Of a stretch of DNA of 7,121 bases, positions 78-7,121 are shown piece after piece (position 1 is the first letter of the stretch; each line of letters starts with the position of its first letter). A program made the position numbers and the translations under genes. The notes below the pieces were generated by a model, which made no database searches, was not told the DNA's origin, and worked only from the letters and a program-made list of their open reading frames with translations. This stretch comes from a virus (Duplodnaviria; Heunggongvirae; Uroviricota; Caudoviricetes): positions 1 to 7,121 of IMG/VR virus record IMGVR_UViG_2648501841_000011. One strand, given 5' to 3'.

Positions 78-233
78 TTACTCCTCAGGTTCGTAAGCTG
101 TGAAGACAGCGACCTCCGTCTGGCCGGTTCGGATTCGTACCTCGCAGAGGTCTTTCCTCGTTACCAGTGCCGTCACTATGACGGTTAAACAGATGACGAT
201 CAGGGCGATTAACATCGCCTTTTGCTGCTTCAT
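78..233 (-). CDS. hok: Hok/Gef-family type I toxin, 51-aa small membrane peptide (MKQQKAMLIALIVICLTVIVTALVTRKDLCEVRIRTGQTEVAVFTAYEPEE)
   Basis: ATG at 231-233 (minus) preceded by AAGGAGAAG SD; N-terminal hydrophobic helix followed by the conserved LVTRKDLCEV...GQTEVAVF core typical of Hok/Gef/RelF peptides; the flanking leader has hok-mRNA-like sequence blocks (GCUUGAGGCU-UCUGCCUC and UAGCCUCUUACGCGCC...AAGGAGAAG). From memory it is closest to HokD/RelF-type sequences, but no relBE genes lie upstream, so a specific paralogue is not assigned. Confidence 0.9.
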   Translation of the reverse strand: MKQQKAMLIALIVICLTVIVTALVTRKDLCEVRIRTGQTEVAVFTAYEPEE

Positions 234-290
234 AGCCTGCTTCTCCTTGCCTTTCGGCGCGTAAGAGGCTAACCTACATGTGTCTAGCAT
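78..290 (-). CDS. mok: mok-like reading frame: 70-codon in-frame N-terminal extension of hok (translational-coupling ORF)
   Basis: ORF track 78..290; ATG at 288-290 lies 57 nt upstream of and in frame with the hok ATG, the arrangement annotated for chromosomal mok/hok pairs. Whether it is translated is inferred, not shown. Confidence 0.45.
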   Translation of the reverse strand: MLDTCRLASYAPKGKEKQAMKQQKAMLIALIVICLTVIVTALVTRKDLCEVRIRTGQTEVAVFTAYEPEE

Positions 291-345
291 GAAATTGGCC
301 TCAGATTAATGTTAGGCGTCTTGCAGGACGCGTAATGTTAACTGG
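282..345 (+). ncRNA. sok: putative Sok-like antisense RNA overlapping the mok start and hok leader (boundaries approximate)
   Basis: Plus-strand promoter-like TTGCCT (247-252), 17-nt spacer, TAACCT (270-275) inside the mok frame, pointing antisense to the hok leader; small hairpin GCGTC-ttgcag-GACGC at 316-331. The position is that expected for Sok in hok/sok loci; ends not determinable from sequence. Confidence 0.3.
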
Positions 346-404
346 GGCTTTTCTCTATCTGCCGTTGGTGTTCATGCCCGAGGCAGATAGCCTCAAGCAC
401 CCGC

Positions 405-1962: not shown

Positions 1963-2376
1963 CTATTCCATCATTACTCCTGTGTAAAATATCAAAACTC
2001 GCTGCATCACTTCACTGTTACGGCACTCACTACAAATTATGTTCAATTGCCTGTCATAGCGGCGTATTTCTCCGTCTGGTAATGACCAGATAAGGTCAGG
2101 ATCAACCACAACCGGTTTCTTCAGTTTTGCCCTCGATAGTTTTTTGCGGGCGTTTTGCCAGTCCTTACGAGCCTGTTCAGATGGGAATAACCCGTAACCA
2201 GAGTTGTATACATCGCCACTGGCAACCAGCTCTCTGGCAAGAACGCTCATCAGATATCTTGTCGCACCTGTCTTGGCTTCCAGTTGCCGTAACGTCTCGC
2301 GCCCACTCCGGCGTACTAGCTCAACAACCTGCCCTTTAATTTTTTCCCGCTCTTCCTGTGTAAATACTTTTGCCAT
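1963..2376 (-). CDS. hypothetical phage protein (137 aa) with HTH-like N-terminal region; last gene of the minus-strand early operon in this window
   Basis: ATG at 2374-2376 (minus) with GGAGG SD 5 nt upstream; the ORF track's TTG start at 2391 is rejected; its SD overlaps the stop of the upstream gene (operon coupling). Function not recognised. Confidence 0.6.
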   Translation of the reverse strand: MAKVFTQEEREKIKGQVVELVRRSGRETLRQLEAKTGATRYLMSVLARELVASGDVYNSGYGLFPSEQARKDWQNARKKLSRAKLKKPVVVDPDLIWSLPDGEIRRYDRQLNIICSECRNSEVMQRVLIFYTGVMME

Positions 2377-2391
2377 AAGCGCCTCCGGCAA

Positions 2392-3257
2392 TCACTTTTC
2401 CGATACAACACGGCGGGAAGAATCAGTAATCTGTCGAACAATATCCCGGTGCTTGTTCAGCTCCCGCAGCGCGGCGCAGACTCGCTCCCACTTCTGAACA
2501 TCACTTTTCGCCCTGCGCAGCGCCAGGTTTGCCCTGCGAAGGGACGGAAAAATCAGCTCATCTGCTTGCGTTTCGGTAAACGATGGCAACGGCTGCACAA
2601 TGTCCGCCACAGTTTCTGTTTTAATTTCTTCCTGTGTTGCGGCTTCCCGGACTGGTAACGCAGCACCTGCTGGCTGAGGAAAGGCCTTACCATCATTTTT
2701 CGTTACCGGCGCGGCTTTCGGATCTGCTGGTAAATTACCCCCCGACATGCAGTAACGAAATTTACCGTTCTGATTAACGCGNNNNNNNNNNCTTTCCGTT
2801 ACCAGCGCGGCTTTCGGCTCTGCTGGTAAATTATCGCCCGGCATGCAGTAACGAAATTTACCGTTCTGATTAACGCGTGCCAGCCGCCCCGTTGCGGTTA
2901 CCACCGCCAGCGTGGAAGCAACCTTGCGAGTACTGACGCCGAACTTACCCGCCAGTTCCTCACACGTTTTAGCACCATCCTGACCGATAAACTCAACCAT
3001 CATGTCTGCGGTAACTTTTGGAGCGACCTCTTCGGTTACCACATCCGGCGCTTCAGGTTGTAGTGCCTGCCCTTCGGTTACCCCGGCTTCACCTTCGACA
3101 GCCAGAAACCAGGTGTGACCCGTTTTATCAACAACGCCATTTTTTTGAGTTCCCACAGTTCGTTAAGAACTTCTTCACGGCTGATATCAAGCCGCGCCGC
3201 CAGTTCAACAGAATTGGCTTTTCCCATCGCTTTCAGTGCATGCAATACAGTTTCCAT
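2392..3257 (-). CDS. phage protein with winged-helix-like N-terminus and an internal 32-aa tandem repeat; reading frame broken by a 1-nt frameshift at an A7 tract (plus-strand T7 at 3140-3146) and containing a 10-N gap (2782-2791)
   Basis: ATG at 3255-3257 (minus) with GAGGT SD encodes [39 protein letters not shown], then reaches the A7 run; that frame stops at 3078-3080 (59 codons), while the other frame (ORF track 2392..3156) continues [18 protein letters not shown]... for 249 codons. One extra A, or a -1 slip, would give about 288 aa. Position directly downstream of the dnaC-like gene. Confidence 0.6.
2686..2877. repeat. 96-bp tandem direct duplication (2 copies) inside the coding sequence; the first 10 nt of copy 2 are masked as N
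   Basis: 2697-2781 and 2793-2877 align at a 96-nt offset with a few mismatches, encoding twice the peptide [12 protein letters not shown](P/S)G(D/G)NLPA(E/D)PKAA(L/P)VT; N run at 2782-2791. Confidence 0.85.
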
Positions 3258-3282
3258 CGAAAATTTACCTCGTCAAAAATTC

Positions 3283-4023
3283 TCACATACCCTGACGTCC
3301 AACGTTTGACCGCCAGCTCTCCCAGTTAAAATTCACCCAACGACCACCATTCATGGTCATACGGTCCATCACCCGATCTCCGAGGAGTGTGCTCATCGCT
3401 GCGTGATTCAGGTTCGTCAGCATTCCGACACTACACATCGAAGCCGTTCTGCGGTCGACTATCTGGTTCAGCGTGACCTGCTCGTTGCGCGTATCCCGCT
3501 GCATGCCAATTTCATCAAGGACCAGAAGGTCAACTCCACAAAGCTCCTGTAAAAATTTTTCCCCGGACTGGCCGTTGTCGTAGCCGTCATGCAACACGCT
3601 CATGACATCGGACACGGTGACGATAATCACGCTTCTCCCCTTCGCCATCAGCCGATTGCCAATCGCTGCTGCCAGGTGATTTTTACCGGTACCAGGTTTA
3701 CCGCTGAACACGAAGTTTGTACATCCGGTCATCAATTCATCGGCAATGGATTTCGCCTGGCTCAGAGCATGGCGCTGACCGTCGTTCTGCACCCGGTAGT
3801 TCCCGAATGAGCACTTCCTGTGAAGCGGCTGGATGCCCGCACGGTTCAGGATTTTTTCAACCCGCACCTGATGATTCAGGCGGTTAATCTCCTCGCTGCG
3901 TTTTCGTCGTTCAGCAAGTTGCCATTCCCGCCACTCCTCCACCGTCCGGTACGGTGGAACCGCCCCCTGTGGTGCAAGTCTGCGAATACGTTCAAGAACC
4001 CCAACTGCCGCAATGTTTTTCAT
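3283..4023 (-). CDS. DnaC-like replicative helicase loader (IstB-like AAA+ ATPase)
   Basis: 246-aa ORF; Walker A GKPGTGKNHLAAAIG and Walker B LLVLDEIG; GGGGG SD upstream of the ATG; immediately follows the replication initiator gene, as in the ydaU-ydaV-type arrangement of Rac-like prophages. Confidence 0.9.
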   Translation of the reverse strand: MKNIAAVGVLERIRRLAPQGAVPPYRTVEEWREWQLAERRKRSEEINRLNHQVRVEKILNRAGIQPLHRKCSFGNYRVQNDGQRHALSQAKSIADELMTGCTNFVFSGKPGTGKNHLAAAIGNRLMAKGRSVIIVTVSDVMSVLHDGYDNGQSGEKFLQELCGVDLLVLDEIGMQRDTRNEQVTLNQIVDRRTASMCSVGMLTNLNHAAMSTLLGDRVMDRMTMNGGRWVNFNWESWRSNVGRQGM

Positions 4024-4029
4024 GACACG

Positions 4030-4992
4030 TCACCCCCTGAATCCCGGCGGTATTTCAGTGTCCGGTTCAGAAATGTGATTCACGCAACGCTGCGCGGGCG
4101 AACGCCCCAGGCGGATAACCAGTTCATCCCATTTTTCCCGGAGTTTTGCCGGACTCATGATGTTTTTTACCCAGAACGAATCCCGCTGGAGACGCCCAAA
4201 CATTTCACAAATTTGTCTGTGAGTTCTGCCATCCAGCATCCGCATTGTCCGCACGTCATTGGCCCATGCAGTCCAGTTGGGTTCTTTCGGTCTCGTGATC
4301 TCGCCATCATCGCTGGCCGCCTGCTCGTAAAGACTCACGATTCGTCCCCAGATCCACTGTGCGCACACCAAATCTTCCTGACTTCCCCACTGGCGTTTTT
4401 TCGCACTGAACACAACCGCGTCAGGGTGTCGGGTTAAAAAATTCTGTTCAGCCGTCTGCGGGTCCGGTTGCGAAGCGTCCGGACAAGAAGATCTTTTATC
4501 TGACGGATCAGGTTTTAATACTGACGGATCGGGGTCAATCATCGCCCCCCTAATCGGCAGTTTGTTATCAACAGTTGATCCATCAAAATTTGACGGGTCA
4601 ACCGTTGAGGGGGCAATATTTGACGGGTCAACTGTTAACGGGTCATTTTTTGCCGGGCTAATTTTTCTTTTCGGTTTATATGACTCACGCGCCGCCGCAG
4701 CAGCTGCTTCGAGTTTTTCCACATTAAGCCGATAGATATTGCTTACATTACGCCCACCGACCTTACGCTCTTCCTTCGTCAGCCAGCCCTCTTTCGCCAG
4801 TTCTGCAATAGCCGATTTCACTGTGGATTCACTTCTTGCACCGATCTGACGCCGGATAGTTTCAATGGCAGGCCATGACACGCCCTCGTCATTGCTGTAG
4901 TCTGCAAGACGGGCCATAACCGCCACCCTGGATAAGATCATGCCGGTGAAGGCGCACCCTTCCCAGACAAGACCATGAAGCTTGCTGCTCAT
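4030..4992 (-). CDS. phage replication initiation protein (lambda O-like role): N-terminal winged-helix DNA-binding domain, low-complexity linker, C-terminal domain
   Basis: ATG at 4990-4992 (minus) with GGGGG SD; the ORF track's GTG at 5007 is rejected. N-terminus ...LSRVAVMARLADYSNDEGVSWPAIETIRRQIGARSESTVKSAIAELAKEGWL is typical of HTH-type replication initiators; gene order cro-like / cII-like / initiator / DnaC-like. Confidence 0.85.
   Translation of the reverse strand: MSSKLHGLVWEGCAFTGMILSRVAVMARLADYSNDEGVSWPAIETIRRQIGARSESTVKSAIAELAKEGWLTKEERKVGGRNVSNIYRLNVEKLEAAAAAARESYKPKRKISPAKNDPLTVDPSNIAPSTVDPSNFDGSTVDNKLPIRGAMIDPDPSVLKPDPSDKRSSCPDASQPDPQTAEQNFLTRHPDAVVFSAKKRQWGSQEDLVCAQWIWGRIVSLYEQAASDDGEITRPKEPNWTAWANDVRTMRMLDGRTHRQICEMFGRLQRDSFWVKNIMSPAKLREKWDELVIRLGRSPAQRCVNHISEPDTEIPPGFRG
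4495..4690. repeat. putative origin of replication: iteron-like repeats inside the initiator gene (TGACGG(A/G)TC x4; palindromic TCAACnGTTGA-type sites x3 at exact 30-bp spacing) next to an AT-rich stretch
   Basis: TGACGGATC at 4501 and 4522, TGACGGGTC at 4591 and 4621; TCAACAGTTGA 4568-4578, TCAACCGTTGA 4598-4608, TCAACTGTTAA 4628-4638; T-rich run 4644-4680. They encode the repetitive linker (VDPSN...STVDPSN...) of the initiator, like lambda ori lying within gene O. Confidence 0.45.
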
Positions 4993-5014: not shown

Positions 5015-5440
5015 TTAGTGCATCACCACAGCATTCCCTGCCGGGCCGCCGCGATTCATCTGGTCATACAAAACAACCGCTGACGCAACAAAATCATCGA
5101 CATCCTTCACCAGCCGATCCCTCCGTTCGACGATCTCACGGTAATATTCAGAACTGTGGCTGCGCATACGGGCCACCAGCAAAGGCGGCATCGCCTTTTC
5201 GATCGCCGGTAACAGAGCCTGCATTTTTTCAACAGCATCAGGGGTGTCTTTATCCAGCCAACGGAAAATTTTCTGGGTATTACGGGCCAGGGCTTCCGGA
5301 TGGCTGTCGTCATACAGTTCCGGGAACGTCATTCCCAGCTCGAAATACGCTTTGGTAATTTTCGCAGCCGGTACTTTTTCGCCGTCCGGATGCGCCCAGA
5401 CATTCATCGCCATGCGGATGTGTTCATGCTTGATTTTCAT
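5015..5440 (-). CDS. ydaT: YdaT-like protein (reported from memory as a CII-like regulator partner of YdaS in Rac / CP-933P-type prophages)
   Basis: 141-aa ORF beginning MKIKHEHI...; its ATG overlaps the stop of the upstream cro-like gene (ATGA overlap at 5437-5440); position second in the early-right operon. Family assignment by recollection of YdaT sequences, not by search. Confidence 0.7.
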   Translation of the reverse strand: MKIKHEHIRMAMNVWAHPDGEKVPAAKITKAYFELGMTFPELYDDSHPEALARNTQKIFRWLDKDTPDAVEKMQALLPAIEKAMPPLLVARMRSHSSEYYREIVERRDRLVKDVDDFVASAVVLYDQMNRGGPAGNAVVMH

Positions 5441-5739
5441 GAATCAACTCCATCAGATAAGCATGCACTACAATCACCTTCAGCATGAACTACATGTGTT
5501 TGCCCCAAACGAATGCCGCTCGCATACTCAGGCCAAATAAGCTCCCAATCATGGGGTCGTAGCTCCGCCCTACTTACTTGGCCTTCCGTCGCAGATTCGA
5601 TCATAAGGGCGCGGGTTGGAGATATAGCTGTTCGTCCAGACGCCATTTGCGATAAGTAAGATGGCGATACACCAAGTCTGGCCGCGAATTTCTTAGCATC
5701 ACCAACCCTTAATGATTTAATAAACTCTTTTAATGTCAT
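5437..5739 (-). CDS. ydaS: Cro-like HTH regulator of the YdaS family
   Basis: 100-aa ORF with GAGGAAGG SD; HTH segment FAARLGVSPSYLSQMASGRTAISPTRALMIESATEGQVSRAELRPHDW matches the YdaS-type signature (LGVS...G.R.I...RA..IE.AT.G.V.R.ELRP.DW); divergent from the repressor gene. Confidence 0.85.
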   Translation of the reverse strand: MTLKEFIKSLRVGDAKKFAARLGVSPSYLSQMASGRTAISPTRALMIESATEGQVSRAELRPHDWELIWPEYASGIRLGQTHVVHAEGDCSACLSDGVDS

Positions 5740-5836
5740 ACCTTCCTCGGTTTAGTGTTTTTTTGCGAGTTTAGTGTTTAATAAACCATTAAGTCAAGTA
5801 TTTGCTTGTTTAGTGATTACTAAAGATAATTACCAC
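5740..5836. promoter_or_regulatory. divergent promoter/operator region between cro-like and cI-like genes with three GTTTAGTG(T/A)TT repeats
   Basis: GTTTAGTGTTT at 5750-5760 and 5769-5779, GTTTAGTGATT at 5808-5818 (the last within the palindrome TTTAGT-gatt-ACTAAA, 5809-5824); plus-strand TTGCTT (5802-5807), 17-nt spacer, GATAAT (5825-5830) ends 6 nt before the paaR2 ATG. Confidence 0.6.
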
Positions 5837-6208
5837 ATGCAAAAAAAAGAAATTCGCCGTTTACGTCTCAAGGAGTGGTTTAAAGATAAAACTCTGCCAC
5901 CCAAAGAGAAGAGCTACCTATCTCAACTAATGAGTGGGAGAGCCTCGTTTGGAGAAAAGGCTGCCAGAAGAATAGAGCAAACATACGGGATGCCGGAAGG
6001 GTATCTGGATGCGGAATACGCAGAACAACCGGGGGGTTCTCCACCACATGCAGGGTTAACGTCTAATCAACTGGAATTATTGCAGATTTTTTCAGCCTTC
6101 CCTGAGGATGAGCAACGCCAGATAATCAGCGAGTTAAAGCAGAAAAAAGAATCAATGGAAGATCTCATAGCGAGATGGATTGCGGCGCAAAAATGCCGCC
6201 GCGCCTGA
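5837..6208 (+). CDS. paaR2: PaaR2-like HTH transcriptional regulator in the CI-repressor position; first gene of the paaR2-paaA2-parE2 module
   Basis: 123 codons from ATG 5837; N-terminal CI/Cro-type HTH (EKSYLSQLMSGRASFGEKAARRIEQTYGMPEGYLD); the ORF track's GTG start at 5774 lies inside an operator repeat and is rejected; the -10 element abuts the ATG, suggesting a leaderless transcript. Confidence 0.8.
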   Translation: MQKKEIRRLRLKEWFKDKTLPPKEKSYLSQLMSGRASFGEKAARRIEQTYGMPEGYLDAEYAEQPGGSPPHAGLTSNQLELLQIFSAFPEDEQRQIISELKQKKESMEDLIARWIAAQKCRRA

Positions 6209-6228
6209 GTTATAAAACCGGAGGAAAC

Positions 6229-6420
6229 ATGAATAGAGCCCTTTCACCAATGGTTTCTGAATTTGAAACCATTGAACAAGAAAACAGTTACAACGAATGG
6301 CTGCGTGCGAAAGTAGCAACGAGCCTTGCAGATCCGCGCCCAGCAATTCCCCATGACGAAGTTGAGCGCAGAATGGCAGAACGCTTTGCTAAGATGCGCA
6401 AGGAACGGAGCAAGCAGTAA
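6229..6420 (+). CDS. paaA2: PaaA2 antitoxin (63 aa), partner of ParE2
   Basis: ATG at 6229 with GGAGG SD 5 nt upstream; peptide MNRALSPMVSEFETIEQENSYNEWLRAKV... recognised from memory as PaaA2; its stop (6418-6420) is 1 nt from the parE2 ATG. The ORF track's upstream ATG at 6175 lies inside paaR2 and is rejected. Confidence 0.8.
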   Translation: MNRALSPMVSEFETIEQENSYNEWLRAKVATSLADPRPAIPHDEVERRMAERFAKMRKERSKQ

Positions 6421-6421
6421 A

Positions 6422-6700
6422 ATGTTACCCGTGTTATGGCTTGAAAGCGCAGATACCGACCTAGATGATATAACTAGTTATATTGCTCGTTTCGACATAG
6501 ATGCGGCTGAACGCTTATGACAGCGATTAAGGGGTTGTGTGCTGCCGTTATCCGAACATCCGTATTTATACCCACCAAGCGACAGAGTACCTGGCTTGCG
6601 TGAGATTGTAGCCCACCCTAACTATATAATTCTATACCGCGTAACAACATCAAGCGTTGAAGTAGTAAACGTGATCCACGCAAGACGCCAGTTTCCCTAA
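6422..6700 (+). pseudogene. parE2: parE2 (ParE/RelE-superfamily toxin) interrupted by an in-frame TGA at codon 33 (6518-6520)
   Basis: ATG 6422; N-terminal 32 codons MLPVLWLESADTDLDDITSYIARFDIDAAERL, then TGA; the same frame continues without a stop as QRLRGCVLPLSEHPYLYPPSDRVPGLREIVAHPNYIILYRVTTSSVEVVNVIHARRQFP to TAA at 6698-6700. Both halves have ParE-like character; 279 nt in total would give a 92-aa toxin if the TGA were a sense codon (TGG is one transition away). Confidence 0.7.
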
Positions 6701-6718
6701 CTTTCACTACCAATAGAA

Positions 6719-6765
6719 ACATAACAACCGCAACGACTTTATCAAAAGCGTTGTGTTTGTTATGT
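6719..6765. other. long inverted repeat / hairpin downstream of parE2 (ACATAACAA ... TTGTTATGT arms with nested CAACG/CGTTG)
   Basis: Perfect 9-bp arms at 6719-6727 and 6757-6765 with an internal sub-palindrome; begins about 19 nt after the parE2 stop; no clear U-tract, so terminator function is uncertain. Confidence 0.4.
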
Positions 6766-6771
6766 CCCGCG

Positions 6772-6812
6772 GTTTAGTTTTTACTTGACTTAAGTTTAAT
6801 GTTTATTAAACT
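6772..6812 (+). promoter_or_regulatory. putative rightward (PL-like) promoter with a fourth operator-like motif: GTTTAGTTTTT (6772-6782), -35 TTGACT (6784-6789), -10-like TAAACT about 16-17 nt downstream
   Basis: One-mismatch copy of the intergenic operator motif immediately upstream of, and overlapping, a sigma70-like hexamer pair on the plus strand. Confidence 0.35.
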
Positions 6813-7121
6813 AAAAATACCAACCCACCCCGCCCCACAGAACGCAGGGAAATACTTCGAGTTACCCGGCAGTGGTCAGGGGTTAAGTAGCCAGCCCGAG
6901 GCGTATGAACATGACGGCAGGGTTCAACTTTAATAACTATGCAGCAGGTTTTTGTTCCGCTACCCCGGCGTTAAGGGGAAACAGAGGGTTTCTCAGTGGG
7001 CGAAGTCAAACATCAGAATGGAAGGCATCCCGGGATCGGCAAAGAAGCAGCAATGGCGCTTTATATTGACATCAGCGCCATTGCAGGACAGGTAAGAGTT
7101 ATCAGAGCGGTAACTAAGCGG

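Follow-up and report, generated by a model that had tools for sequence, protein, structure and literature searches.

The window, the whole stretch of 7,121 nucleotides analysed here, carries a phage-type regulatory region (Table 1). The genes ydaS and paaR2 are divergent and lie 97 bp apart with back-to-back promoters between them, as in a lambdoid switch. ydaT follows ydaS, and paaR2 is followed by the toxin-antitoxin (TA) genes paaA2 and parE2, a hairpin, a further promoter and a conserved non-coding leader. Positions 5400-7121 share 99.9% identity with the immunity region (ydaT-ydaS / paaR2-paaA2-parE2) of prophage CP-933P (Sp12) of E. coli O157:H7. It is the same locus as that described by Jurenas et al. 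in 2021 (mBio, PMC8630535), with the operators, the PR, PRM and PL promoters and the YdaT box all shared, and the mapped primers of that paper (16/16) match it exactly, as expected of the EDL933 locus. A single difference from the O157 reference, G to A at 6520, is found in 5400-7121. The first 5400 nucleotides are mosaic relative to O157, and a low-GC open reading frame at 838-1611 is not in the O157 locus.

Table 1. Features of the regulatory region and published DNA fragments, in window coordinates. The two parts of each operator are separated by a slash; scores are matches out of 18 to the published half-site arranged as a palindrome.
Feature	Position	Strand	Sequence or elements	Remarks
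ydaT (CII analogue)	5015-5440	-		Pfam YdaT_toxin, E 2.8e-10; annotated as YdaT family in the O157 locus
YdaT box OM	5430-5447		TTGATT-N6-AATCAA; TTGATTTTCATGAATCAA	At ydaS stop / ydaT start
ydaS (Cro analogue, HTH_XRE)	5437-5739	-		Pfam YdaS_toxin, 3.3e-12; HTH_3, 6e-7
OR region between ydaS and paaR2	5740-5836		97 bp	Published EMSA fragment, primers FL1/FL2
Operator, motif copy 1	5750-5767	+	GTTTAGTGT / TTTTTGCGA	Single conserved half; probably IR4, going by the paper's text
PR933P, promoter of ydaS-ydaT	5768-5797	-	-35 TTGACT 5797-5792; 18-nt spacer; -10 TAAACT 5773-5768	Promoter scan
Operator palindrome, motif copy 2	5769-5786	+	GTTTAGTGT / TTAATAAAC	15/18; probably IR3
Degenerate operator	5788-5805	+	ATTAAGTCA / AGTATTTGC	Probably IR2
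PRM933P, promoter of paaR2-paaA2-parE2	5802-5837	+	-35 TTGCTT 5802-5807; -10 GATAAT 5825-5830	Hexamers read by eye
Operator palindrome, motif copy 3	5808-5825	+	GTTTAGTGA / TTACTAAAG	16/18, best score in the window; probably IR1
paaR2 (CI analogue)	5837-6208	+		123 aa; no S24 peptidase domain
paaA2, antitoxin	6229-6420	+		Sole Pfam match PaaA2 (PF21217, toxin-binding 'stability determinant'), E 1e-19; no DNA-binding domain
parE2, toxin gene	6422-6700	+		Broken by TGA 6518-6520 (W33*); TGG in the reference
Strong hairpin between parE2 stop and OL	6719-6765	+	Inverted repeat I3	RAE2 transcript: candidate terminator or stabiliser
OL operator palindrome, motif copy 4	6772-6789	+	GTTTAGTTT / TTACTTGAC	14/18; overlaps PL933P -35; within reporter fragment
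PL933P	6785-6812	+	-35 TTGACT 6785-6790; 16-nt spacer; -10 TAAACT 6807-6812	Promoter scan
OL operator palindrome, motif copy 5	6794-6811	+	GTTTAATGT / TTATTAAAC	Spans PL933P spacer and -10
Conserved non-coding leader of PL transcript	6817-6981	+	About 165 nt	
Published footprint probe	5698-5886			Mapped by primers
Published PR/PRM reporter	5764-5837			Mapped by primers
Published PL reporter	6701-6818			Mapped by primers

The two regulators are readily recognised. YdaS matches PDB entry 8C7K, 'Phage antirepressor protein Cro', over its full length (residues 1-100, E 1.5e-63), and residues 1-71 of PaaR2 match 7NKV and 8C3K, 'Phage repressor protein CI' (E 5e-41). Entries for PaaR2 and YdaS in the PDB comprise 7NKV, 8C3K, 8C3L, 8C7K and 8CO2. 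Apart from the entries for its own N-terminal domain, PaaR2 has only weak and unrelated PDB matches (E >= 0.0017), and it has no Pfam family at E <= 0.01. The S24 peptidase domain for RecA-stimulated autocleavage, present in lambda CI and LexA-like proteins, is absent; PMC8630535 likewise describes PaaR2 as having no peptidase motif and no response to mitomycin C. PaaA2 does not carry the antitoxin DNA-binding domain on which canonical type II TA autoregulation depends. YdaT is the published activator of PRE933P (PMC8630535), and the YdaT box of the window matches the footprinted inverted repeat of PMC9986795.

An earlier note on this DNA had drawn attention to a repeated motif, GTTTAGTG(T/A)TT, with three near-identical 11-mers between ydaS and paaR2 and the third of them inside a palindrome. 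Direct reading bears this out: GTTTAGTGTTT occurs at 5750-5760 and again at 5769-5779, and GTTTAGTGATT at 5808-5818, within the palindrome TTTAGT-N4-ACTAAA (5809-5824). A fourth OR site, degenerate and located at about 5788-5805, had been overlooked. The four sites, starting at 5750, 5769, 5788 and 5808, are regularly spaced at 19, 19 and 20 bp. Those at 5769-5786 and 5808-5825 are good palindromes; in each of the other two, a single half is conserved. The 5750 site covers the predicted ydaS transcript start, immediately past the PR -10, and falls outside the PR/PRM reporter fragment. The 5769 palindrome shares bases with the PR933P -10 and spacer, the 5788 site spans the PR -35 and the proposed PRM -35, and the 5808 palindrome sits in the PRM933P spacer and extends 1 nt into the proposed -10. 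PR933P as placed here agrees with the published 5' RACE start, and the PRM933P transcript, its start likewise placed by 5' RACE, begins at the A of the paaR2 ATG (5837) and is leaderless, with the N-terminal sequence MQKKE (PMC8630535).

A second operator cluster lies over PL933P, past the repressor operon, again as in a lambdoid switch. The earlier note had placed one further motif copy about 70 nt past the parE2 stop; GTTTAGTTTTT is indeed found at 6772-6782 and begins 72 nt past the stop codon (6698-6700), while a second downstream copy, GTTTAATGTTT at 6794-6804 and the fifth in all, had been missed. The 6772 copy was also said to overlap the -35 element TTGACT. The 11-mer itself stops 2 nt short of it, and the overlap holds for the full 18-bp palindrome. 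An independent promoter scan gives identical hexamers for PL933P and PR933P, as PMC8630535 also describes. Two strong OL palindromes are found here versus the three OL operators named in that paper. Around the hairpin, the segment 6701-6790 folds with a minimum free energy of -24.8 kcal/mol (z = -4.86), a stability equalled by 0/200 shuffles. The two clusters are separated by about 1.0 kb (site centres 964-1025 bp apart); in phage lambda the OL-OR separation is about 2.3-2.4 kb.

The motif occurs well above background in the window. With up to one mismatch allowed, GTTTAGTGWTT gives 6 matches in the 7.1 kb versus 0.34 expected, a number reached by 0/200 shuffles; the match positions are 5750, 5769, 5808, 6772 and 6794. 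The motif search proposed in the earlier note was extended to 41.7 kb around the matching locus on an O157 chromosome, where 5/6 such matches fall in the two clusters and the sixth lies in the host clcB region, outside the prophage. Three non-overlapping copies in the 97-bp region (31% GC) were seen in 0/2000 mononucleotide shuffles and 10/2000 first-order Markov simulations, and two copies in the OL segment (26% GC) have P ~5e-5 under a local-composition null. When 18-bp palindromes are scored against the published half-site, only 5769, 5808, 6772 and 6794 reach at least 14/18 in the window, and the next-best score is 12. The clusters are also related to each other. OR 5744-5786 aligns with OL 6766-6811 in direct orientation with a score of 47 (maximum of 2000 shuffles, 45), and PL aligns with PR read as its reverse complement.

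Diverged relatives keep this arrangement. In E. coli RMDEC364 (PaaR2 74% identical) and Klebsiella phage 5 LV-2017 (45%) the outer arms GTTTA and TAAAC are conserved, the 39-bp spacing of the two strong OR palindromes is kept, and a second operator site or pair lies in a promoter with a TAAACT -10 past the repressor operon. In the relatives L002 and L004, where this 39-bp spacing between the 5769 and 5808 sites is seen, the arms of the 5769 palindrome lie at 2750 and 2491, respectively, and the counterparts of the 6794 palindrome lie within PL at 4196 and 3054. Four relatives all keep the segment GTCAAGTATTTGCTTGTTT of the degenerate 5788 site unchanged. Comparative support is thereby gained for GTTTA-N8-TAAAC as conserved operator arms. 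The positions of the sites, their non-randomness, the paralogy of PR and PL and the conservation of the layout in diverged relatives are direct results of this analysis.

Published experiments on the same locus bear on which proteins use these sites, a point the earlier note held could not be told from sequence. Both do, with opposite preference: PaaR2 and YdaS have been studied by EMSA and DNase I footprinting on the 97-bp intergenic fragment, where PaaR2 protects about 78 bp continuously and YdaS about 65 bp in two stretches of 27 and 32 bp (PMC8630535). That paper describes four 18-bp inverted repeats with the half-site GTTTAGTAA, a consensus drawn from OR and the PL region. With gfp fusions, and with PaaR2 or YdaS supplied alone in a host without the prophage, each protein represses PRM933P, PR933P and PL933P. 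Repression of PL933P, which follows parE2 and has operators OL1-3, is about 100-fold with either protein (PMC8630535). Both the binding assays on 5740-5836 and the promoter fusions that the earlier note had suggested are thus already in print. This in vivo repression of PL in a prophage-free host would imply that OL is occupied by PaaR2 and YdaS (PMC8630535).

The repeated motif is therefore real and marks repressor-binding operators of the CP-933P immunity switch, and its copies are almost certainly half-sites of the OR and OL operators of a CP-933P (Sp12)-type lambdoid prophage. The layout proposed earlier, with a PL-like promoter under the same repressor as the TA operon, corresponds to the published model of the locus (PMC8630535), and no result obtained here contradicts it. 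The published binding, half-site and PL933P data make this reading both supported and already known. Experimental descriptions of the sites, of their binding proteins and of the additional PL promoter past the toxin gene date from 2021 (PMC8630535). The finding is thus accurate without being new; the point about the wiring of the TA pair was likewise made and tested in that work, which leaves the finding no discovery value. The modest contribution made here consists of exact coordinates, the operator layout kept in diverged relatives, the window-specific parE2 W33* and the conserved leader past PL.

Among other explanations, the one that fares best is that sites of the GTTTAGT type are used by PaaR2 only and that YdaS reads overlapping 'pseudosymmetrical operator' repeats, with no CI/Cro site in common. 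PMC8630535 describes two overlapping kinds of repeat and differing footprints for the two proteins, and in its account of the sites it fixes no exact recognition sequences; a repeat search here also recovers a longer, 24-nt direct-repeat family, D2 (5762-5785, 5801-5824, 6787-6810). Separate sites are nonetheless rather unlikely, in that both proteins repress all three promoters and the two types of repeat overlap almost entirely, and because of this near-complete overlap both proteins would contact the GTTTAGT core region regardless.

Much less probable still is that the sites are classical TA operators of a PaaA2-ParE2 complex under conditional cooperativity rather than targets of phage-type regulators. 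They do lie in the promoter of an operon with a type II TA pair, and most type II systems autoregulate in this way, with the promoter of the TA genes controlled by operators in its own upstream region. In this locus, by contrast, DNA binding falls not to the antitoxin but to two other proteins, the phage-type repressor PaaR2 and a Cro-like protein. The toxin-binding PaaA2 family is the only one that PaaA2 matches, and a DNA-binding domain is absent, with which the description in PMC8630535 agrees. PaaR2 or YdaS alone reproduces repression in the prophage-free host. Moreover, the Klebsiella phage shares the operator layout and has no TA genes at all, which is also evidence that the TA pair is an insertion between the repressor gene and OL.

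The probability is negligible that the repeats arose by chance or from the composition of AT-rich promoter DNA (-10-like and UP-like overlaps), and this explanation is largely refuted already: both regions are strongly AT-rich and the right operator arm TAAAC doubles as part of the PR/PL -10 TAAACT, so that some conservation could reflect promoter function, but local-composition nulls reject it for OR (P <= 0.005) as for OL, the four best palindromes of the window are exactly these operator sites, relatives keep arms and spacing while inner bases differ, and the footprints and repression assays of PMC8630535 indicate specific binding.

On the OR/OL operator reading, OR overlaps the back-to-back promoters PR933P (ydaS-ydaT) and PRM933P (leaderless paaR2-paaA2-parE2). 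Past the parE2 stop and the hairpin, one OL palindrome lies on the PL933P -35 and the other on its spacer and -10, and transcription from PL933P runs away from the TA operon into early-left genes. PaaR2, as CI analogue, and YdaS, as Cro analogue, compete for the same operator sites. At a low level PaaR2 represses PR and PL and activates PRM, YdaS preferentially shuts off PRM, and jointly the two form a bistable switch; bistability has been demonstrated experimentally (PMC8630535). PaaR2 octamerises in solution (PMC8630535), and the octamer may loop OL to OR. One tentative proposal, put forward as a whole, is that octameric PaaR2 bridges OL and OR, forming a loop of about 1 kb around paaR2-paaA2-parE2 and the hairpin, and that the PL leader is an undescribed cis-acting element of early-left operons of the Rac/CP-933P type. 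If such bridging takes place, loop formation would set TA expression. Both the loop and the cis-acting leader are compatible with the known model and extend beyond the published one. For TA biology, the operators mean that a TA pair can be wired into a bistable switch of the lysis-lysogeny type rather than being self-regulating. Such wiring helps explain the stabilisation of cryptic prophages in pathogenic E. coli O157:H7.

The likeness to phage lambda extends to divergent repressor and cro genes, partly symmetric operators over back-to-back promoters, a second operator cluster on a PL promoter past the repressor operon, a repressor with a leaderless mRNA and octamer formation in solution, and PRM activation at low repressor levels (PMC8630535). 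There are also differences. CP-933P has four 18-bp OR sites versus three in lambda (PMC8630535), its PaaR2 has 123 residues, lacks the S24 autocleavage domain and does not show SOS induction, and a ParE-family TA pair occupies the place between the repressor gene and OL that rexAB has in lambda. Sequence homology between PaaR2 and lambda CI was not detected in this analysis. The RacR/YdaS/YdaT switch of the Rac prophage in E. coli K-12 shares gene order and the YdaS and YdaT families with CP-933P, and its YdaT box is nearly identical, with cross-binding. In contrast, Rac has its own repressor, RacR, with different operators and no TA module. The YdaT proteins differ too: that of Rac binds between racR and ydaS as well, but that of CP-933P shows no binding between paaR2 and ydaS.

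The single change in the switch region affects parE2. What the earlier note calls the toxin gene has an interrupted reading frame in the window, the change at 6520 leaving a ParE2 that ends at residue 32. In the O157 reference the protein is intact and has a ParE_toxin match at 1.9e-16, and phage Evi has W at position 33. Segment 5400-7121 has no match at 100% identity among complete E. coli genomes, an exact 40-mer search of genome contigs for the W33* allele found nothing, and no contig record encoding the 53-aa and 64-aa fragments was found. Matches to a 32-aa ParE2 fragment were set aside as evidence for W33*. All the contigs concerned simply end at 6517-6519, and these matches are therefore a selection artefact that lends the allele no support.

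Several candidate identities were considered for the leader of the PL transcript. Rfam gave no match in it at the gathering threshold, and a permissive scan of 6690-7121 returned only a spurious sub-threshold miRNA match on the upstream hairpin (6719-6765). A structured RNA is not supported, the single-sequence fold being no better than those of shuffles (z = +0.76); RNAalifold, run on six copies, finds a single compensatory pair, and the covariation term is positive. An antiterminator RNA of the HK022 put type is similarly unsupported, with P = 0.2 for the top-scoring local alignment with the PL-nun leader of HK022. A small conserved protein was rejected, since the GAGG-N8-ATG start gives unrelated peptides of 6 aa in pPE4, 18 aa in Rac and 52 aa in this window. 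Among 5426 complete E. coli genomes, 3720 (~70%) carry the leader, which is unannotated in nearly all of the matches listed. In Rac, the same conserved leader of about 160 nt follows the repressor-distal promoter region. The leader stands out as a separate conserved island, with at least five different sets of repressor and operators in front of it.

Many E. coli O157:H7 chromosomes match the segment 5400-7121 at 99.9% identity; in them it sits within a lambdoid prophage, with the replication genes on one side and ydfC/dicB on the other. Outside this segment the window is a mosaic, of which any one complete genome covers at most about 80%. Exactly this DNA was studied by Jurenas et al. 2021 (mBio, PMC8630535), whose primers match the window without mismatch. 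As described in the text of that paper, the 97-bp ydaS-paaR2 intergenic fragment (OR) is shifted both by PaaR2, the CI analogue, and by YdaS, the Cro analogue; PaaR2 protects about 78 bp, YdaS a 27-bp and a 32-bp stretch. Of the four 18-bp inverted repeats, IR1 overlies PRM, IR3 overlies PR, and IR2 and IR4 are only half-conserved. Pseudosymmetric operators OR1-3 overlap the IRs; we infer the window coordinates of these names from the paper's wording. PR and PRM are each repressed by PaaR2 and by YdaS, PRM is activated at low PaaR2, the paaR2 mRNA is leaderless, and the locus is bistable. At PL933P, which carries operators OL1-3, repression is about 100-fold with each of the two proteins. The text reports no direct binding assay on an OL fragment, and its authors state that the exact bases read by PaaR2 and YdaS were left undefined. 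YdaT activates PRE, with no effect on PR, PRM or PL (PMC8630535). Its site, TTGATT-N6-AATCAA, was later footprinted (PMC9986795), and TTGATTTTCATGAATCAA at 5430-5447, which overlaps the ydaS stop and ydaT start codons, is the published high-affinity YdaT box (OM).

The earlier note had read recurring copies of the 11-mer GTTTAGTGWTT as an OR/OL layout joining the toxin-antitoxin repressor to a PL-like promoter. The observation is real and the interpretation correct, both having been established before for this very locus. Binding at OR, repression of PR, PRM and PL, and most of the experiments the note proposed are already described in the text of PMC8630535.

Features of the window and of related loci (coordinates are those of the sequence named)
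Feature	Sequence	Coordinates	Strand	Basis or match
Hok/Gef family ORF	window	78-233	-	Pfam, E 1.2e-23
sok antisense RNA	window	228-402	-	Rfam, 112.6 bits
ydaT	window	5015-5440	-	Pfam YdaT_toxin
ydaS	window	5437-5739	-	YdaS_toxin/HTH_3; full-length match to PDB 8C7K 'Cro'
paaR2	window	5837-6208	+	no Pfam family; N-terminal 71 residues match PDB 7NKV/8C3K 'CI'
paaA2	window	6229-6420	+	PF21217
parE2	window	6422-6700	+	ParE_toxin
EMSA fragment (PMC8630535)	window	5740-5836		primer mapping
Footprint probe (PMC8630535)	window	5698-5886		primer mapping
PR/PRM reporter (PMC8630535)	window	5764-5837		primer mapping
PL reporter (PMC8630535)	window	6701-6818		primer mapping
PRE reporter (PMC8630535)	window	5412-5531		primer mapping
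PL leader copy	L005	1501-1655		
PL leader copy	L006	1501-1660		
PL leader copy	L007	1501-1655		
PL leader copy	L008	1501-1659		
PL leader copy	L002 (E. coli RMDEC364)	~4219-4345		

Direct reading of the sequence places the four copies claimed earlier at 5750, 5769, 5808 and 6772, the third within a TTTAGT-N4-ACTAAA palindrome (5809-5824). With one mismatch allowed there are six matches in the window where 0.34 are expected, a count reached in none of 200 shuffles; one of them, at 6794, had been overlooked, and the lone match at 757 is probably due to chance. Local-composition nulls were added because the motif regions are just 26-31% GC. None of 2000 mononucleotide shuffles gave three copies in the 97-bp region, and 10 of 2000 first-order Markov simulations did; for the two copies in the OL segment P is about 5e-5 under the local-composition null. 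In the matching O157 locus (41.7 kb, about 27 kb of it prophage) the 11-mer is found only at these five positions and at one host clcB site. On these results the motif does not occur at background frequency, which the earlier note had named as grounds for refutation. Each 18-mer of the window was also scored against a palindrome built from the published half-site, GTTTAGTAA. Scores of 14-16 of 18 were obtained at exactly four positions (5769, 5808, 6772 and 6794), with all others at 12 or below. A degenerate fourth OR site lies at about 5788-5805.

A consensus scan detects a minus-strand TTGACT-N18-TAAACT (5797 to 5768), directed at ydaS, and a plus-strand TTGACT-N16-TAAACT (6785-6812), directed away from parE2. 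These are PR and PL; their hexamers are the same, as is also stated for PR933P and PL933P in PMC8630535, and in each the right arm of an operator palindrome forms the TAAAC of the -10. The copy at 6772 had been said to overlap the PL -35. The 11-mer itself (6772-6782) ends 2 nt short of that hexamer (6785-6790), whereas the full 18-bp site does overlap it. TTGCTT (5802-5807), N17 and GATAAT (5825-5830) can be read from the sequence as a weak third promoter, which would serve paaR2; its -10 would end 6 nt ahead of the start codon (ATG, 5837), and its spacer is occupied by the best palindrome (5808-5825). OR and OL are related sequences by two comparisons: OR 5744-5786 aligns directly with OL 6766-6811 (score 47; maximum 45 over 2000 shuffles), and PR, once reverse-complemented, aligns with PL as well. 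Two strong OL palindromes are seen here, in contrast to the three OL operators named in the text of PMC8630535.

What is contributed beyond the published work is a comparison of operator layout across three relatives: phage Evi, E. coli RMDEC364 (L002) and Klebsiella phage 5 LV-2017 (L004). In phage Evi, ydaS-paaR2 is 98.4% identical and parE2 is intact. E. coli RMDEC364, with a PaaR2 of 74% identity, has OR palindromes at L002 positions 2750 and 2789; at 4196, inside its PL (TTGACT-N18-TAAACT), is a further palindrome, whose arms are perfect. Klebsiella phage 5 LV-2017 lacks toxin-antitoxin genes and its PaaR2 is 45% identical. Here OR palindromes are found at 2491 and 2530, and a second pair at 3030 and 3054, about 115-140 nt past the repressor stop, with 3054 inside TTTACA-N18-TAAACT. 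All relatives retain the outer arms GTTTA/TAAAC and the core GTCAAGTATTTGCTTGTTT, and their two strong OR sites are always 39 bp apart, while inner operator bases vary; this pattern is a phylogenetic footprint for the operators. In the Klebsiella phage the ydaS-like and paaR2-like genes, together with OR and OL operators, clearly make up an immunity switch. The relatives fit an idea advanced in the text of PMC8630535, that paaA2-parE2 is an insertion separating the repressor gene from OL.

Each of the two more distant loci has features of its own. The GenBank record of the Klebsiella phage (region 2200-3100) annotates neither the ydaS-like gene (2200-2463, minus strand) nor the paaR2-like one (2560-2916, plus strand). 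In E. coli RMDEC364 (region 3220-4129) an extra HTH-domain gene lies between the paaR2 homologue and a relB/parE-type pair, and an IS66 insertion lies about 200 nt past the start of the PL leader.

This leader, a non-coding stretch of about 165 nt (6817-6981), begins a few nt past the PL -10. Of 5426 complete E. coli genomes, 3720 have this conserved stretch, in as many as 8 copies each, whereas the ydaS-paaR2 segment is found in only 665. It is unannotated in nearly all of the matches listed, and is also present, mostly unannotated, in a dozen phages. The leader stands behind unrelated repressor/operator sets, those of PaaR2, RacR, a DicA-like repressor and the CI-like repressors of phages 666R9 and Tritos. 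The leader of Actinobacillus phage pPE4 is an island of 74.5% identity whose flanks cannot be aligned with other copies. A search of Rfam with the leader found no family, and folding gave no excess stability and almost no covariation. The PL operators of 666R9 and Tritos are similar to those of HK022; comparison of the leader with HK022 putL found no similarity.

Between the parE2 stop codon and the OL operators is a strong hairpin with 22-nt arms (6719-6765), which falls inside the published PL933P reporter fragment. The 6701-6790 fold has an MFE of -24.8 kcal/mol (z = -4.86), and 3' of the hairpin are CCCGCG and then the T-rich operator GTTTAGTTTTT. We suggest that the hairpin may serve as a terminator or 3' stabiliser of the paaR2-paaA2-parE2 transcript. 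Within 5400-7121 the window departs from the O157 reference at a single base, by a G to A change at 6520, which turns parE2 codon 33 (6518-6520) from TGG to TGA and cuts the ParE2 toxin to 32 of 92 residues. The A at 6520 is absent from complete E. coli genomes, the best matches all being one mismatch off, and exact-match searches for the allele gave nothing informative. This W33* change may reflect a sequencing error or may be a genuine loss-of-function allele.

Elsewhere in the window, 78-402 is a hok/sok type I toxin-antitoxin locus. A low-GC island at 600-1900 (29-36% GC, about 53% in the flanks) holds a plus-strand ORF of 257 aa (838-1611) with no Pfam match; the corresponding region in related genomes is annotated as an alpha/beta hydrolase and adjoins an IS481 transposase. 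The island looks like a cargo insertion or replacement, because the matching O157 locus carries a DUF551 gene at this position and lacks the ORF. A DUF1627-like ORF (2392-3156) is broken by a 10-N assembly gap (2782-2791). Near-duplicate 28-residue peptide blocks flank the gap, suggesting that a tandem repeat was collapsed or left unresolved; in O157 the corresponding ORF is annotated as frameshifted.
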